NCBI GenBank assembly: GCA_043801595.1
Contig: JAZDLW010000001.1
Coordinates: 1 to 12,735 of the forward strand
Direction: 5' to 3'
Length of the DNA stretch: 12,735 nt
DNA from: Candidatus Aenigmatarchaeota archaeon
GTDB lineage: Archaea > Aenigmatarchaeota > Aenigmatarchaeia > JACPZZ01
A program made the translations under genes and the position numbers. The notes under the pieces are model-generated. The model was given only the letters and a program-made list of their open reading frames with translations, had not been told where the DNA came from and did not search any database. Shown in pieces: positions 3,734 through 11,153 of the stretch. How positions within the stretch are numbered: position 1 is the stretch's first letter; each line of letters opens with the position of its first letter.

Positions 3734-3826
3734 TGTCCAAAGGGGATATTTATATGGTGACGCTAAAAATGCCAATAATCACTAAATTTGAAGTATGATG
3801 CCCGTTTTTAGATAACTTCTGCTATC

Positions 3827-4234
3827 TCACAAAATAATAAATGCCATATACAGCAAAGTTCCAACGATAAAAACAAATCCTACTAACCCAAAAATAAGTA
3901 AAAAGTTACTAATAAAAGCCAACCATCTTTGAGATTTTCCTCTTGAAAAAGCTTCAAGTATTTTTAACAATCCAGAAAGAATCAGGGAAAATGCAGCTAT
4001 AAGAAAAGATCTTATTGTTGAAATACTGATCACGCTTCCTAAAGGTTTGGTAATATCCAAAAGTGAACCTAAAATCAACAATGAAAATGTGCCCAATGTT
4101 GCAATAGATACCCCAAAAGTTGCTTTGTTATGACCTTTTTCGTATATAGTGTCCGCGATATCATTAAATACCCAACTTGGAAGCCCAAATAAAAATGACA
4201 AGAAGTCTTTCTTCTTGACTCGCTTAGATTTCAT
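3827..4234 (-). CDS. Hypothetical membrane protein (about 3 TM helices)
   Basis: Track ORF 3827-4252. ATG at 4234 (MKSKRV) preferred because it lies about 24 nt from the TATA at 4258-4265. Confidence 0.65.
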   Translation of the reverse strand: MKSKRVKKKDFLSFLFGLPSWVFNDIADTIYEKGHNKATFGVSIATLGTFSLLILGSLLDITKPLGSVISISTIRSFLIAAFSLILSGLLKILEAFSRGKSQRWLAFISNFLLIFGLVGFVFIVGTLLYMAFIIL

Positions 4235-4294
4235 ACAATTTAGTTGATGCAAAGTAGTTATAAATTGCTAATTAACCAAAATAACAGTGATCAC

Positions 4295-4465
4295 ATGAAC
4301 ACAGAAAACATCATCTTCTTAATTTCAGGTTTAGCTATTGTAATCTTCGCATTTATGATGAATGTTAAAGACCTGTTGAGTACTGCTATGTTAGGATTAG
4401 CTCTTAGTTTCGTCGTATTCATGATAATATTATCTAAAAAATATAAACACTGGCACAATAGTTAA
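4295..4465 (+). CDS. Small two-TM membrane protein, 56 aa
   Basis: MNTENIIFLISGLAIVIFAFMM...AMLGLALSFVVFMIILSKKYK: two hydrophobic helices and a basic tail. ATG about 30 nt after TTATAAAT. Confidence 0.6.
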   Translation: MNTENIIFLISGLAIVIFAFMMNVKDLLSTAMLGLALSFVVFMIILSKKYKHWHNS

Positions 4466-4485
4466 TATTCGTAGAAATTAGTCGA

Positions 4486-4932
4486 TTAACCCTTTTCTAT
4501 GCTATAAAGACGACTTTCGATATCAGGATAAATTTTATTTACCCACTTTTTCACAAAAAATTTATTCGTCTTATTATCATAGAATAGATCATATTCTATT
4601 TCTTCAAGTTGTTTTTTTATTTCTTCATAAAAAAGATAAACGACGCCATTTATGTTAATTTGATAAATATTACACAAACCCTGTCTCTCTTTTTTTTCTA
4701 ATACCTTTGTTGTTTTGAAAATTAGAAATTTCTTTTTTTCTGCTATGATAATATTATTCTCCCATAAAGGTAGCCCAGGCGTCATAAAAATAGGGACATG
4801 ATGTTTTTTAGATAATTGTAACAACTCTTCTTTTGTTTTTATTATTGGTTCTTTCTTTATTGATTCTCTGTTGTCAGAAACGGGATTAACATTTGTTATT
4901 ACTATCACATGTTGTTTTTTATCATTTTTCAT
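4486..4932 (-). CDS. Hypothetical Lys/Glu-rich soluble protein
   Basis: 148-aa ORF that stays open in very AT-rich DNA; no recognised motif. Confidence 0.65.
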   Translation of the reverse strand: MKNDKKQHVIVITNVNPVSDNRESIKKEPIIKTKEELLQLSKKHHVPIFMTPGLPLWENNIIIAEKKKFLIFKTTKVLEKKERQGLCNIYQININGVVYLFYEEIKKQLEEIEYDLFYDNKTNKFFVKKWVNKIYPDIESRLYSIEKG

Positions 4933-5139
4933 GAATTAGATTCATTCTTCAAAAGGTTAAAACCTGTCTTCTTAAAAAAAGTCATACAGAGTTAACATCT
5001 GATTAAAACGGATTCATTCTGAATGGTAATGATCGTATAACCTATAGGAAAGGGTCAAACTAACCTAAAGAATGTGTTATTACTGCACAGTTAATCATAC
5101 TCAGATGATCAGAATATATTTATCATTTCTGAACATAAT

Positions 5140-5152: not shown

Positions 5153-5784
5153 CGATCCTAACCCTCCCCGAGGCTGAAAAACTCTTTCGCAAATACGGAA
5201 TCAACACAGTCGATGAAAAGCTCGTTAAAGACCGGAATTCCGCAGTAACCATAGCCGGCCAGATCGGACTGCCTGTGGTTGTTAAAGCGCACAACTTCAT
5301 TAACAAAACCGAGCACGCTGCAATAAAAACCAACATAACCACTTTGGAAGCTGTGGCTGAAGCGTTCGAAAGTGTCGGAGCAGCCCAATATTCAAAAACC
5401 GGCAAAAAAGCCGAAGGCGTGCTTCTGCAAAAACATCTTGACGGGATCGAGTTTGCGATAAGCGTGTTCGGCTACCCTGATAAAACCATACGCTTTGGCC
5501 TTGGCGGCTTATTCACGGAAATTTTCAATGATTTTTCTTCGCACGCAGTTCCATTGAGCGAAAAAGACGCCGCTGCCATGGTCTCGGGACTGAAAAACAG
5601 CAGGATATTTGACGGGTTCAAAGGATTCAAACCAATCAAAAAGGACAGACTGGAAAAAGTGATACTCGCTGTTGCTGAAATGGTGCAACGCGAAGATGTG
5701 AAAGAGCTCGACATAAACCCGCTATTTGTAAACGGCGACTCTGCGCTCGTCGCGGACGCAAGGATCGTCACGGGTGACGGGTAA
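5152..5784 (+). CDS. ATP-grasp protein, ADP-forming acetate/acyl-CoA ligase beta-subunit family; start codon anomalous, possibly degenerate
   Basis: Homology extends upstream of the track GTG at 5275: TILTLPEAEKLFRKYGI...IAGQIGLPVVVK. Further motifs GVLLQK, GIEF, FGLGGLFTEIFND, ELDINPL and ADARI. No in-frame ATG/GTG/TTG between the TAA at 5092 and 5275; ACG at 5152. Confidence 0.78.
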   Translation, partial: TILTLPEAEKLFRKYGINTVDEKLVKDRNSAVTIAGQIGLPVVVKAHNFINKTEHAAIKTNITTLEAVAEAFESVGAAQYSKTGKKAEGVLLQKHLDGIEFAISVFGYPDKTIRFGLGGLFTEIFNDFSSHAVPLSEKDAAAMVSGLKNSRIFDGFKGFKPIKKDRLEKVILAVAEMVQREDVKELDINPLFVNGDSALVADARIVTGDG

Positions 5785-6808: not shown

Positions 6809-8449
6809 TTAATTTCCTTTTTCTTTATTTTTTCCGTATCTCTTGTCAATATCTTCAAGCTTTTTGTCGATTTTCTTCTCCGCTTCAAGCCTTTCCAGAC
6901 CGTACGATGCTGTGTCAACGAAATTCGCAAACGACGTAAGATTCGGATGCACTTTTCTCACTTCTTCAAACATGTTCTGCGCAACTGCGCGGTAATCCGG
7001 ATGCCCTTGCCGTCCGCTTCTTAGCTCGCACAGGTGATAGACTTCTCTCAGGTTCATCATGAAATACCACCTTATCCTGTATGCGAGAGGAACGACATAT
7101 TGCGCCTCGTTCGGATATTTCACCGCAATCGCCCCGAAAGCAGATTTCGCAGCGTCCATCGCATCCGCGTACTCGGTTCCAAGTCCGGCCTCGCTGATTT
7201 CAGCAGGCATGTCGTAACCGTTATTGGTTGTTAACAATTGCCGCACCTGTGTAAGTATCCTGTGCCTGTGCAGATCGCGGTACATGCCGTAATTCCCTAA
7301 AATATCGAATTTGTAATAGGTGTTTTCGAAAGCGCGGCCAGGACGATGTCGCCTGTTCGCGCGCTGCGAAACATACGCTTCGATTATCCTTTTCCTCTCA
7401 TCAGCGCCCATTTTCGAAACTGTCTCCCTTATTCTCGTCTCGGATACGCCAAGATGCGGATAGAGTATTGCTGCTATGATCTTTACCTCCGCATCCCTGT
7501 CATAATCGACAAGCGTGACGGTTTTATCGTTTTTCGCAATCTCTTTCAGGTTTGACGCAATAGCCTCCACATCGCCGTGGCTACTTGAAAGATAATTGAC
7601 ATAATCGCTTCCGTGCGATCCGGAAACCCTTTTTACAAACGACGGTATCACTGTGCCAAGCTCGTTTTTCATCGAATCCGATATGTTTTTCATCTCAGCC
7701 ATCGGATTCGCTTTCATCTTCAGCAGCAAATACTCAAAAGCTCGTCCATTGCCGTAAAGCCCGAGATTTGTCAGTGTGCCCGCAGGCAGCAGCCCTCGAA
7801 TCAGATCGCACGCTTTAGCCCTTACAGCCGCTTCGTAAGCGCGGTCCGATACGCTTTCCGTTCTCGGAAATCGCCCGATCACGAACTTCTTGACAGGCTC
7901 AATCGTTTTCGCGTAAGTATCGAACAGTAGGTTCATTGTCTCAATGTACGTGTCCGCAAATTCGGACGCCATAATCGTTGGTTCCTTGTAAAACTTGTAC
8001 GACCCGTCCTCCTTTTGGTCGAAAAATACGTAGCGCGTCGATTTTTCCAAGGGCGAAAGGCCGATTCGCGAATCCTCGATTACCTTTGTGGCTACGATTG
8101 AAACGTTTTCGCAGGCAACATGCGCTCCGCCAAGCTCGGCAACAGAATCGTCGCCAAAATCAACCAAAACGCGATCGTAAAACTCTTCCGCTTTCTTTAT
8201 GGCGGCTGATTGGTCTGTCGTATTCGTAGAACCGACAATTTGACTGAATCCCATCTCGGGTTTTTTTATAAACTCATCGAGTAAAACTCTCCGTAGGCTT
8301 TTCGAAGTCCTACTGTAACGCGAGAATAACGAACCTTTCACAACCTCTGGAAGGTTTTTTATAACGAATATATCCTTGTCCATGTTCGAGAAAAAAGGTC
8401 TTAGAACCGCTTCCTCCTCTGGCGTGAATCTCTGCTGCATCTGCTTCAC
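6809..8449 (-). CDS. thyX: FAD-dependent thymidylate synthase, long tandem-domain form
   Basis: Domain 1: DFGDDSVAELG, SPLEKSTRYV, D.IRGLLP. Domain 2: YRDLHRHR, AQYVVPL, ELRSGRQGH..YR. GTG at 8449 overlaps the glyA TGA; alternative ATG at 8440. Confidence 0.93.
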   Translation of the reverse strand: MKQMQQRFTPEEEAVLRPFFSNMDKDIFVIKNLPEVVKGSLFSRYSRTSKSLRRVLLDEFIKKPEMGFSQIVGSTNTTDQSAAIKKAEEFYDRVLVDFGDDSVAELGGAHVACENVSIVATKVIEDSRIGLSPLEKSTRYVFFDQKEDGSYKFYKEPTIMASEFADTYIETMNLLFDTYAKTIEPVKKFVIGRFPRTESVSDRAYEAAVRAKACDLIRGLLPAGTLTNLGLYGNGRAFEYLLLKMKANPMAEMKNISDSMKNELGTVIPSFVKRVSGSHGSDYVNYLSSSHGDVEAIASNLKEIAKNDKTVTLVDYDRDAEVKIIAAILYPHLGVSETRIRETVSKMGADERKRIIEAYVSQRANRRHRPGRAFENTYYKFDILGNYGMYRDLHRHRILTQVRQLLTTNNGYDMPAEISEAGLGTEYADAMDAAKSAFGAIAVKYPNEAQYVVPLAYRIRWYFMMNLREVYHLCELRSGRQGHPDYRAVAQNMFEEVRKVHPNLTSFANFVDTASYGLERLEAEKKIDKKLEDIDKRYGKNKEKGN

Positions 8450-9795
8450 ATCTTAAGATAAAACGGGAACTTCGCGCATAATTCCTTTACACGCGTCTTG
8501 ACGTCCGCAACTTTCGCATTGCTCCTCATCTCGGCTTTAAACGCTTTGATGTAATCCGCCCGGTCGCCTTTATCCGGAAGCTGGTAATCCTTTGTCTCGC
8601 CGATTACGTCGGCTATCCATTTTCCTATGACTAGCATCTCCTTCTCCTTCATTCCCCTCGTTGTCAGTGTCGGCGTTCCTAAACGCAAACCGCTCGGATA
8701 AAACGGCGATGAAGGGTCTTTCGGTATGGTGTTCTTGTTTGTGAATATATTTGCAGCCTCCAATGCTTCAGACGCGAAAACGCCTTTCCCGATTCCGAAC
8801 TGCGTAAGGTCTATCAAAATCATGTGATTCTCGGTCCCATTCGTTACGAGCTTTATTCCGTTTTCCATCAACGCATTCGCAAGCGCCTTCGCGTTTTTGA
8901 CAATCTGTCTGCCGTATTCTTTGAACTCGGGTTTCATCGCCTCTCCCAACGCAACGGCTGTCGCGGCAATCTGGTGCTCGTGTGGCCCGCCTTGAAGACC
9001 GGGAAAAATCGCCCTGTCGATCTTTTCAGAAAGTTCAGGATCCTTTCTCAGTCCTTTCGCAGTAACCATTATCATGCCACCGCGAGGACCTCTCAGGGTT
9101 TTGTGCGTGGTTGTTGTTATTATATGGGCGTATTCAACAGGGCTTTTGTGAACGCCCGCTATTATCAGGCCGGAAATGTGCGCGATATCAGCGGCTAAGT
9201 ACGCGCCAACCTCGTCTGCTATCTTGCCCAACTCCTCAAACGGGAATTCTCTCACATAAGCCGTTGCGCCGACCCATATCAGCTTTGGTTTATTTTCAAT
9301 GGCGAGGCGCCGCACCTCCTCCAAGTCAATGTAGCCGTCCGCTTTTACGTGATAAGGAACGCTCTTATAGAATTGTCCTGTAGCATTTGCTTTCCAGCCG
9401 TGCGTTAAATGTCCTCCGTCAGGCAGATTGTGCCCCATTATAACGTCTCCCGGCTTGCACGTTGCCATATAGACGGCAAAATTGGCCGGACTTCCGGAAT
9501 ACGGCTGGACGTTTGCATGAGGCACGCCAAAGGCTTTTTTTGCGCGTTCTATCGCAATTGTCTCAATCTGGTCTATGAATTCATGCCCGCTGTAATAACG
9601 TTTTTTCGGATAGCCTTCGGAATATTTATTCGTCAGTATCGAACCTAACGCTTCCAGCACAGAAGGCGATACGTAGTTTTCCGAAGGTATCATCTCCAGC
9701 CCTTCTTCCTGCCTGCGTAGGTCGCTCCGGATAAGATTCGCAATCTCCGGATCGGTTTTCGTCAAATTCGAAAGTTGGAAAAACCAGTCTGTCAT
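8446..9795 (-). CDS. glyA: Serine hydroxymethyltransferase
   Basis: LEMIPSENY, NKYSEGYP..RYY, NVQPYSGSPAN, GGHLTHG, DIAHISGL, TTTHKTLRGPRGG (PLP lysine), FPGLQGGP and SGLRLGTP. Confidence 0.98.
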   Translation of the reverse strand: MTDWFFQLSNLTKTDPEIANLIRSDLRRQEEGLEMIPSENYVSPSVLEALGSILTNKYSEGYPKKRYYSGHEFIDQIETIAIERAKKAFGVPHANVQPYSGSPANFAVYMATCKPGDVIMGHNLPDGGHLTHGWKANATGQFYKSVPYHVKADGYIDLEEVRRLAIENKPKLIWVGATAYVREFPFEELGKIADEVGAYLAADIAHISGLIIAGVHKSPVEYAHIITTTTHKTLRGPRGGMIMVTAKGLRKDPELSEKIDRAIFPGLQGGPHEHQIAATAVALGEAMKPEFKEYGRQIVKNAKALANALMENGIKLVTNGTENHMILIDLTQFGIGKGVFASEALEAANIFTNKNTIPKDPSSPFYPSGLRLGTPTLTTRGMKEKEMLVIGKWIADVIGETKDYQLPDKGDRADYIKAFKAEMRSNAKVADVKTRVKELCAKFPFYLKM

Positions 9796-9823: not shown

Positions 9824-9833
9824 ATTATAAATA
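9824..9833 (-). promoter_or_regulatory. TATA box for glyA-thyX
   Basis: Minus strand TATTTATAAT about 30 nt upstream of the glyA ATG, consistent with a nearly leaderless mRNA. Confidence 0.6.
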
Positions 9834-9858: not shown

Positions 9859-9867
9859 TTTTTATAT
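9859..9867 (+). promoter_or_regulatory. TATA box for the C/D box sRNA (and possibly rfcL)
   Basis: TTTTTATAT ends about 24 nt upstream of box C. Confidence 0.6.
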
Positions 9868-9883
9868 CGTCGTGCCGAAAGAG

Positions 9884-9960
9884 AATTGGCGATGACGAAG
9901 ATTTACCGTCCCAGTCTGACCTTTGGAATGACGACAACTGGTAGCTTCGGAGCCGCAATT
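9884..9960 (+). ncRNA. Archaeal C/D box 2'-O-methylation guide sRNA; D' guide predicted to target 23S rRNA G2251
   Basis: Box C ATGACGA 9892-9898, D' CTGA 9916-9919, C' ATGACGA 9928-9934, D CGGA 9948-9951. Terminal stem aattggc/gccgcaatt. Guide accgtcccagt pairs with the conserved P-loop sequence ACUGGGGCGGU. Confidence 0.85.
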
Positions 9961-9972
9961 TTGTCAAAATGG

Positions 9973-10013
9973 TTTTTGGGAAATCCAAAGACCTTTTTCC
10001 CAAAAAGGGATTT
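9973..10013 (+). repeat. Inverted repeats able to form alternative hairpins ahead of rfcL
   Basis: tttttgggaaa (9973-9983) / tttcccaaaaa (9996-10006). Alternative: T-tract stem at 9992-10008 plus aaatcc/ggattt. Confidence 0.6.
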
Positions 10014-10016
10014 GGT

Positions 10017-11153
10017 ATGTTAACGGAAAAATACAAGCCGAAATCGCTGGACGAAGTCGTGGGCCAGAACCAGGTTATTATAAAACTTGAGCACTGGTTT
10101 TCACACTGGAAACGCGGTGAAAAATGCCTTTTCCTGTGCGGACCGCCGGGAATCGGAAAAACTTGCGTCATCGAGGCGTTCGCGGCTGAAAAAAATCTTG
10201 AACTGATAGAAATGAACGCTTCCGATTACCGTACTGCAGAACAAATAAGCAAGGTCGCCGGCAATGCGTCTGCGATGGCGTCGTTGACAAACAGAAAAAA
10301 ACTTATTTTAATCGACGAAGTCGACAACCTCGACAGGCATGAAACCGTAACGCCGCTTGTTAATCTCATAAAAAATTCGGGTTTTCCGATAGTTTTAACG
10401 TCGAACGATGCGTGGAACATCAAAATAAGGCCGCTGCATGCGGTCTCGGAAATAATCCATATGAGAAGGGTGATGTCGTTTTCCGTAACAAAAAAACTCA
10501 AGGAAATTTCAGCAGCGGAAAAATTAAACTCAACGGACGATCACATAAAAGCGATAGCGGCCCAATGCGCCGGCGACCTTCGTTCCGCTATAAACGACCT
10601 GGAATCGTTTTCTTCGGAAACATACCGCGAACGCAGGTCGTCGATATTCGACGCTGTAAGGACAATATTGAAAACAAACAGCGCAAAAGACGCGAAAACC
10701 GCGATATCGCTGTTGTCAGAGGATCCGGAGTACGTTTTCTGGTGGGTTGAGAACAACGTGATAGAAGAATATAAAAATCCAAACGACCTCGCAAATGCGA
10801 TGAAGACGCTTGCACTGGCAGACTTGTTCCGCACAAGGATAAAAAACCAGAACTGGAAAATGCTCGGCTACTTCATAGATTTATTCACATCCGGAACTGC
10901 GCTGGCGAAAAAAGAAACGTACGGCGGATTCACAATGTACCGGCCGCCCGATATTATCTCCTCGCTGGGCAGCACGAAAAAATCGCGGGCTTTGCGAAAA
11001 GAACTTTGCAGGAAGATCGGGAAAAAATTGAACGAATCGCCTTCGACCGTTAATACGGAATACCTTCCGTTCCTCGCAATGCTAAAACGAAACGACGAGA
11101 TTGCAAAATACTTCAACTTGACGGACGAAGAAATCGAAATACTCAAAGCGTAA
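10017..11153 (+). CDS. rfcL: Replication factor C large subunit
   Basis: MLTEKYKPKSL, Walker A GPPGIGKT, IEMNASDYR, Walker B ILIDEVD, PIVLTSND, GDLRSAINDLE and WVENN. ATG 10017 preferred over 9969 on family start position. Confidence 0.93.
   Translation: MLTEKYKPKSLDEVVGQNQVIIKLEHWFSHWKRGEKCLFLCGPPGIGKTCVIEAFAAEKNLELIEMNASDYRTAEQISKVAGNASAMASLTNRKKLILIDEVDNLDRHETVTPLVNLIKNSGFPIVLTSNDAWNIKIRPLHAVSEIIHMRRVMSFSVTKKLKEISAAEKLNSTDDHIKAIAAQCAGDLRSAINDLESFSSETYRERRSSIFDAVRTILKTNSAKDAKTAISLLSEDPEYVFWWVENNVIEEYKNPNDLANAMKTLALADLFRTRIKNQNWKMLGYFIDLFTSGTALAKKETYGGFTMYRPPDIISSLGSTKKSRALRKELCRKIGKKLNESPSTVNTEYLPFLAMLKRNDEIAKYFNLTDEEIEILKA

Follow-up and report, generated by a model that had tools for sequence, protein, structure and literature searches.

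What is encoded in the gap between glyA and a gene for an RFC large-subunit-like AAA+ protein? The window analysed here, 12,735 nucleotides long, is the entire contig C15 of an 814-kb archaeal assembly that is 86% complete. In this gap, four short box-like words follow one another in the order C, D′, C′, D, with 60 nt from the start of box C to the end of box D. The sequence-only reading had taken them, together with an upstream TATA box and a closing terminal stem, for an unannotated C/D box guide sRNA; all of these elements were recovered in place, and the interpretation is now borne out by a conserved RNA with covarying k-turn pairs and a guide that matches the host 23S rRNA. By every sequence feature that can be tested, the element is a real archaeal dual-guide box C/D sRNA. 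It is probably transcribed independently, with a D′ guide that would mark G2251 and a D guide that would mark U2438.

Table. Coordinates of the sRNA gene, its parts and its neighbours (window positions unless a contig is given; 23S positions in E. coli numbering)
Feature	Position	Strand	Remarks
Host 23S gene (L001)	G000:C1:6572-10613	-	reference for all pairings
glyA (SHMT)	8446-9795	-	divergent neighbour of the sRNA
Second TATA-like element	9825-9833	-	presumably serves divergent glyA
TATA-like element, T-rich	9859-9867	+	28 nt 5′ of the terminal stem
Box C/D sRNA body	9888-9954	+	~67 nt; putative ends, set by the terminal stem GGC/GCC
Box C AUGACGA	9892-9898	+	window sequence
D′ spacer	9899-9915	+	9904-9915 pairs with 23S 2247-2258; N+5 = G2251
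Box D′ CUGA	9916-9919	+	window sequence
Short hairpin between D′ and C′	9920-9927	+	most variable part of the sRNA within the genus
Box C′ AUGACGA	9928-9934	+	window sequence
D spacer	9935-9947	+	9940-9947 pairs with 23S 2434-2441; N+5 = U2438
D spacer, alternative pairing	9935-9944	+	with 23S 2688-2697; N+5 = U2689
Box D CGGA	9948-9951	+	window sequence
Dispersed two-hairpin repeat with T run	9971-10010 (region 9963-10020)	+	3′ of the sRNA, before the RFC gene
RFC large-subunit-like AAA+ gene	10017-11153	+	AAA and RCF lid matches

The boxes depart from consensus in a coherent way. Under the k-turn pairing rules, C5 (box C) and G2 (box D) form a C-G pair. The terminal stem (9888-9890/9952-9954) has 3 bp with a 3-nt bulge and, if further bulges are allowed, extends to 9882/9962. 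In the fold of the free RNA, the 5′ part of the D′ spacer can also pair with the D spacer, lengthening stem II. The T-rich TATA-like element is probably the sRNA's own promoter; a TATA-like motif stands 28-31 nt 5′ of the stem in all six genus copies, despite differing flanks, and two of the relatives (G001 and G006) have one single TATA-like element, of the 9825-9833 kind, between glyA and the sRNA. A sigma-70 promoter scan, with a model unsuited to archaea, returned 0 sites. The gene glyA is likewise found 5′ of the sRNA in G001, G003 and G006 and is absent there in G002 and G004. Here the element is intergenic, and so lies outside any tRNA or rRNA intron.

On the other side, the two-hairpin repeat lies outside the sRNA and may end its transcript. 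Three further copies of this repeat are present in the same genome, and many in relatives. The listed open reading frame start of rfcL at 9969 traverses it, and we prefer the ATG at 10017 as the start of this gene. Finally, a strict-filter box scan of the whole genome, which is no census of such genes, gave eleven candidates, among which 9888-9954 alone is convincing.

The element is present in five of six genomes of the genus, where the boxes and the D guide are constant while the loop and flanks vary; the D′ guide shows a single change, in G001. One copy (G006, L012:1502-1630) carries a perfect 60-nt hairpin between D′ and C′, with both guides intact. Beyond the genus, the Rfam SNORD31 model together with a first pattern detected copies in a further five families (f11, f13, f18, f24 and f33), all of which run up to box D with GUAGCU and one more base. 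This first phylum pattern, which demanded strict C and D′ boxes, matched 5 of 371 genomes; it was too strict and was replaced by a model, R1. On this genome, R1 gives one match (9884-9959, 50.1 bits), to a copy that was in its training set. It also gives exactly one match in each of 92 of the 151 genomes of the same phylum (G006 is missed owing to its insert) and, again once each, in 45 of 101 genomes of a second DPANN phylum, that of G399; some of the genomes searched had also contributed training rows. In the phylum of G421, R1 matched 14 of 151 genomes. The guides were inspected in the top 30 of the own-phylum matches and in the 14 of the G421 phylum. Six of these top 30 copies (L191, L200, L201, L202, L208 and L215) reside inside a 23S insertion near 2307; the 23S gene of this genome is without an insertion at that place.

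A wider search among GTDB genomes, with a pattern made of both guides, D′ and C′ and blind to archaea with U at 23S 2437, returned 104 stretches. By record title, they comprise 55 Micrarchaeota, 16 unnamed archaea, 13 Aenigmatarchaeota, 4 Nanobdellati, 3 Altiarchaeota, 3 Iainarchaeota, 1 Nanohalarchaeota, 3 other archaea and 6 bacteria; the copy of one Aenigmatarchaeota-titled record (L096) has the same boxes and guides as here. Boxes C and D, not included in the pattern, stand in register in 98 of the 104, the remaining six being four bacterial records, one Nitrososphaerota-titled record and one contig end. Full copies also occur in two bacterial-titled and two non-DPANN-titled records, which are probably mislabelled or mis-binned.

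In an alignment of 81 copies, covariation of the k-turn and terminal stem pairs reached 0.53, compared to 0.17 when shuffled and at most 0.19 when slid. The C6-D1 pair is standard in 73 of the 81 rows and the D′1-C′6 pair in all 81, each with four pair types; in the terminal stem, 78.9% of the cells are paired, with changes on both sides. These data bear directly on whether the boxes could be a chance array of words between two genes. On the element, every Rfam family stays below its gathering score (the best, SNORD31, RF00089, scores 23.1 against 40 bits), and its folding energy is unremarkable (z = -0.4 to -1.4), as would be the case for a chance array. A weak folding z-score is, however, expected for a k-turn RNA, and chance is left with a negligible probability by the conservation, the single copy, the compensatory changes and the guides matched to their host.

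The family is thinly represented in three families of the phylum: the sRNA was detected in one of seven genomes of f7, one of twelve of f13 and one of fourteen of f40 (3 of 33 in all). We considered that these families might be without fibrillarin, which was ruled out since the gene is found in 7/7, 12/12 and 14/14 of their genomes, respectively. There, the sRNA may have been lost, split or diverged.

Where would this RNA act? Targets were sought in the 23S rRNA, as the assembly contains no 16S, and positions were numbered on E. coli K-12 rrlB aligned to the host gene. An 11-nt pairing of the D′ guide with the P-loop, including one G-U, had been proposed from conserved sequence; against the genome's own 23S rRNA, the pairing covers 12 nt (+1 to +12, 11 Watson-Crick and one G-U), with +5 opposite G2251, the nucleotide to which the N+5 rule had been said to lead. 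The forecast of a full 17-nt pairing failed, as the duplex stops at a mismatch at +13. This is the best duplex of the guide in the 23S rRNA (-23.0 versus -17.3 kcal/mol for the next), and 10 of 1000 guide shuffles reached 11 Watson-Crick pairs. Moreover, a G-U-tolerant search of the genome with the last 13 bases, including the first base of D′, matched only the 23S P-loop and the sRNA gene itself. In G001, the D′ guide is mismatched at +9. G2251 touches the end of the P-site tRNA (PMC11542601); in E. coli, the methyl group of Gm2251 blocks an alternative conformation of D2449, and loss of rlmB alone is without phenotype (PMC13469067). The equivalent Gm2353 is annotated in the cryo-EM model of the T. 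kodakarensis ribosome (PMC12124282).

The D guide, for which the sequence-only reading had given no target, pairs at +1 to +8, all Watson-Crick, with 2434-2441. This stretch belongs to helix 74 (3′ strand). In this genus, the duplex has just 8 bp and is followed by a U-U mismatch between +9 and 2442. By energy, the guide has a stronger duplex at four other places in the 23S rRNA, with up to -14.1 against -12.2 kcal/mol at U2438. Two registers fit the guide, one on U2438 (+1 to +8) and one on U2689 (+4 to +13, with +3 mismatched). We chose U2438 as the target of the D guide because in relatives +9 tracks position 2442 of their own 23S rRNA.

This comparison rests on an rRNA pattern that was tried on 50 of the 99 initially listed loci and matched 17 genomes. 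The 17 genomes counted are 15 fetched from these plus G260 and G245, three with the downstream site alone being left out. In 15 of the 17, positions +2 to +8 were preset by the search pattern, and the independent test begins at +9. The +5 pair is Watson-Crick in 17/17 genomes. At +9, the pair with 2442 is Watson-Crick in 16/17 (A-U in eight, G-C in six and U-A in two); the shuffle mean is 6.7 and none of 20000 shuffles reaches 16, although these genomes are kin and the shuffle overstates the case, so that the +9 covariation is strong without being a probability. Among the records that a literature search listed, none pointed to methylation of U2438.

It could be argued that in this genus the D guide of the same sRNA has been retargeted to U2689, or doubles on it. 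This nucleotide lies in helix 96, 3′ of the sarcin-ricin loop. Positions +4 to +13 pair with 2688-2697 in this genome (G000), G004 and G006, where the base at +9 tracks 2693 instead of 2442; at +4, two of these genomes have a G-U pair and G006 has a G-C pair. The duplex is also the stronger one (-14.1 versus -12.2 kcal/mol at U2438) and, given the +1 to +8 core, 7 of the 1024 possible 5-mers match in this manner elsewhere in the 23S rRNA. Against this, +3, two bases from the target, is mismatched, with wobbles at +2 and +4, and whole-guide shuffles yield a run of nine Watson-Crick pairs in 96 of 1000 cases. Furthermore, half of the match is inherited, as UACC is common to both sites, and of 17 further genomes that have this part of the 23S rRNA, only L130 and L095 show a partial match. 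Retargeting or doubling within the genus appears unlikely, if worth keeping in mind. As a target for the whole family, U2689 was rejected, since relatives pair there no further than the shared UACC.

U2438 thus being preferred, we can propose how the RNA might work. In the established pathway, an RNP of L7Ae, Nop5 and fibrillarin forms on the two k-turns and methylates the bases given by the N+5 rule (PMC4644070, PMC7994747). Here, L7Ae would bind the C/D and C′/D′ k-turns, Nop5 would bridge them and fibrillarin would 2′-O-methylate the base opposite guide position +5. The D′ guide would grip 2247-2258 and mark G2251, which is the job of RlmB and of SNORD31/snR67. The D guide would grip 2434-2441 in helix 74 (3′ strand) and mark U2438. 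Since this second strand leads into 2445-2449, the two strands gripped by a single RNP would meet at the P site. Both gripped strands flank one subdomain of domain V, and the RNP might also serve as a folding aid.

Could folding be its main role, the D guide pairing with helix 74 without methylating U2438? The two targets lie 187 nt apart, when most dual guides have theirs within 100 nt (PMC7994747), and long-range dual guides have been proposed to act as chaperones (PMC4644070). Across the family the D duplexes are short, mostly 8-10 bp, and the two spacers pair mutually in the free RNA. However, +5 is Watson-Crick in all of the 17 genomes, and 98/104 stretches keep the same register to box D. 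This counts against pairing alone, because methylation needs both features and mere pairing needs neither. We consider a chaperone that does not methylate U2438 rather improbable; a chaperone role as such is compatible with dual methylation of G2251 and U2438, which we favour.

The expectation that this archaeon has kept RNA-guided rRNA methylation holds for two of the three proteins: in profile searches, the Nop5 and L7Ae genes are intact, but in this assembly the fibrillarin gene is frameshifted. The latter (C23:157154-157815, L002) directly follows nop5 and has one base missing in an A run (157637-157641). One reading of this is that the sRNA gene is intact yet idle in this strain, fibrillarin having recently been inactivated by the one-base deletion that splits it. 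The assembly is not riddled with errors, which is in agreement with such a lesion: a frameshift scan gave 14 strict candidates of 137, and one of six others inspected looks real. Nevertheless, the deletion falls in a homopolymer, as is typical of assembly slips. The two halves are about as conserved as each other (0.73-0.78 and 0.64-0.73 identity to relatives, compared to 0.83-0.88 and 0.69-0.82 among the relatives) and no second lesion was found. Fibrillarin is intact in 5/5 genus relatives and scores above cut-off in 150/151 genomes of the phylum, and there is no sign of decay in Nop5, L7Ae or the sRNA.

We therefore regard an idle sRNA as quite improbable. The break itself is probably an assembly slip; a recent real lesion is a poor second, and a small remainder goes to minus-one slippage, a known mechanism, which may occur at low level on the AAA AAG sequence of the gene. 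A metagenome search for the fibrillarin locus returned 0 exact matches and 21 related ones, the best at 76% identity and none from the same species. The "two TGA stops" in a second L7Ae-family match proved to come from alignment overhang, the L30e-like gene itself being intact, and a SpoU-family gene considered as RlmB is TrmJ (38 bits with the RlmB model, compared to a cut-off of 160). RlmB was not found in the assembly, whose 86% completeness leaves its absence from the organism unproven. Elsewhere in the genome, a second probably frameshifted gene, of unknown function, lies on the minus strand near 5245 of G000:C31.

That a guide addresses G2251 has been predicted before: in one survey (PMC4644070), guides for this nucleotide (G2520 in its alignment) appear in three of seven archaea, each with a local partner target. 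These RNAs, T. tenax sR7 (TtesR107), P. calidifontis sR36 and M. kandleri sR13, have the same layout, follow the N+5 rule and target the P-loop, as here, and the T. tenax and P. calidifontis guides carry before CUGA the same word, CCGUCCCAGU, as our element. They differ in that the G2251 guide of T. tenax and P. calidifontis stands at box D, and not at D′, and in that the partner target of all three lies within ~30 nt instead of 187 nt. For the second target, the closest likeness in the same survey is Nanoarchaeum equitans sR14. Its D guide likewise has GUAGCU and one further base directly 5′ of box D, and its predicted target is U2712 of the alignment, which we count as U2438, in the same register. 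By our own reading, the D′ guide of N. equitans sR4, whose target is blank in the survey table, resembles the P-loop guide; N. equitans would thus split over two RNAs the targets that are united here in one. Similarly, M. maripaludis sR106, listed there with no target, has by our reading a U2438-type guide at D′.

A P-loop guide at D′, as here, is also found in S. acidocaldarius sR110 and in the guides of the G421 phylum, but the latter have a different D guide in all 14 copies and weaker R1 scores (28-40 bits). In L224 of G421, a P-loop guide at D′ is joined by a D guide that falls on 2437-2445 in another register, with N+5 near C2441 (G000 numbering), and a fibrillarin gene is close by. In Bacteria, the SPOUT enzyme RlmB makes the same product, Gm2251, as a protein alone (PMC11542601).

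Within Rfam, the nearest kin are SNORD31/U31 (RF00089, in clan CL00053 with yeast snR67 and plant snoR35) and Giardia GlsR4 (RF02473). The best Rfam E-value in the window is that of SNORD31 on this element, followed by GlsR4 and sR39, the last scoring 15.4 against a cut-off of 50. When 12 family loci were scanned, SNORD31 reached at best 33.4 bits, below its 40, and no archaeal sR family (sR1-sR60, snoPyro_CD) came to its cut-off. SNORD31 directs a D′ guide to the G2251 equivalent, as here (PMC3511168, PMC11542601), and its consensus also has GGUA at +8 to +5 of the D spacer. However, SNORD31 is eukaryotic, the likeness is largely forced by the boxes and the common target, and an internal stem with the D′ spacer would account for GGUA. 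The comparison yields a shared D′ position and GGUA register, with no signal beyond boxes and guides, and the likeness is a lead only. An ancient guide lineage for G2251 and U2438 across DPANN phyla, acting as a folding clamp on the P-site side of the peptidyl transferase centre and orthologous to SNORD31, seems improbable. If true, it would make a snoRNA family traceable across the divide between archaea and eukaryotes, when previous surveys were unable to establish cross-domain orthology for single snoRNA families (PMC3511168, PMC3486863).

What stands out is the coupling, across phyla, of targets that lie 187 nt from each other; this type of molecule was known before, and so was G2251 as a target. 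No description of a coupled G2251/U2438 family was found in the literature searched, most subscription papers lying outside it. Archaeal guides are described as evolving fast and as combining their two guides in varied ways, with fewer than two-thirds of targets conserved within one genus (PMC7994747). The same two targets, served by a single-copy RNA across Aenigmatarchaeota, Micrarchaeota, Iainarchaeota and Altiarchaeota, would be an exception to this rule and would name a minimal set of P-site modifications retained by small-genome archaea. The family predicts a so far unreported Um2438, offers a clean test case for the idea of long-range chaperones and, through R1, allows the annotation of a gene absent from Rfam.

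Some minor observations were made along the way. The 23S gene of this genome has an insertion of ~690 nt after the equivalent of 1919 (~2046-2738 of the gene), with an open reading frame that reads as a LAGLIDADG homing endonuclease-like protein, and further insertions of ~135 nt after 2470 and ~165 nt near 2750. ARAGORN called only 17 tRNAs in the genome, 11 of them with long introns (up to 190 nt), some of these calls being doubtful. In the window, 3750-5000 forms a low-GC island (26-32% versus 45%) that was possibly acquired, and its open reading frames at 3827-4252 and 4486-4932 matched no Pfam family. Past this island, a lone ATP-grasp_5 open reading frame of 169 aa (5275-5784) may be a remnant. 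Finally, glyA overlaps by 4 bases a gene for a 546-aa double-domain Thy1/ThyX protein, the two (6809-9795) forming a probable thymidylate operon.
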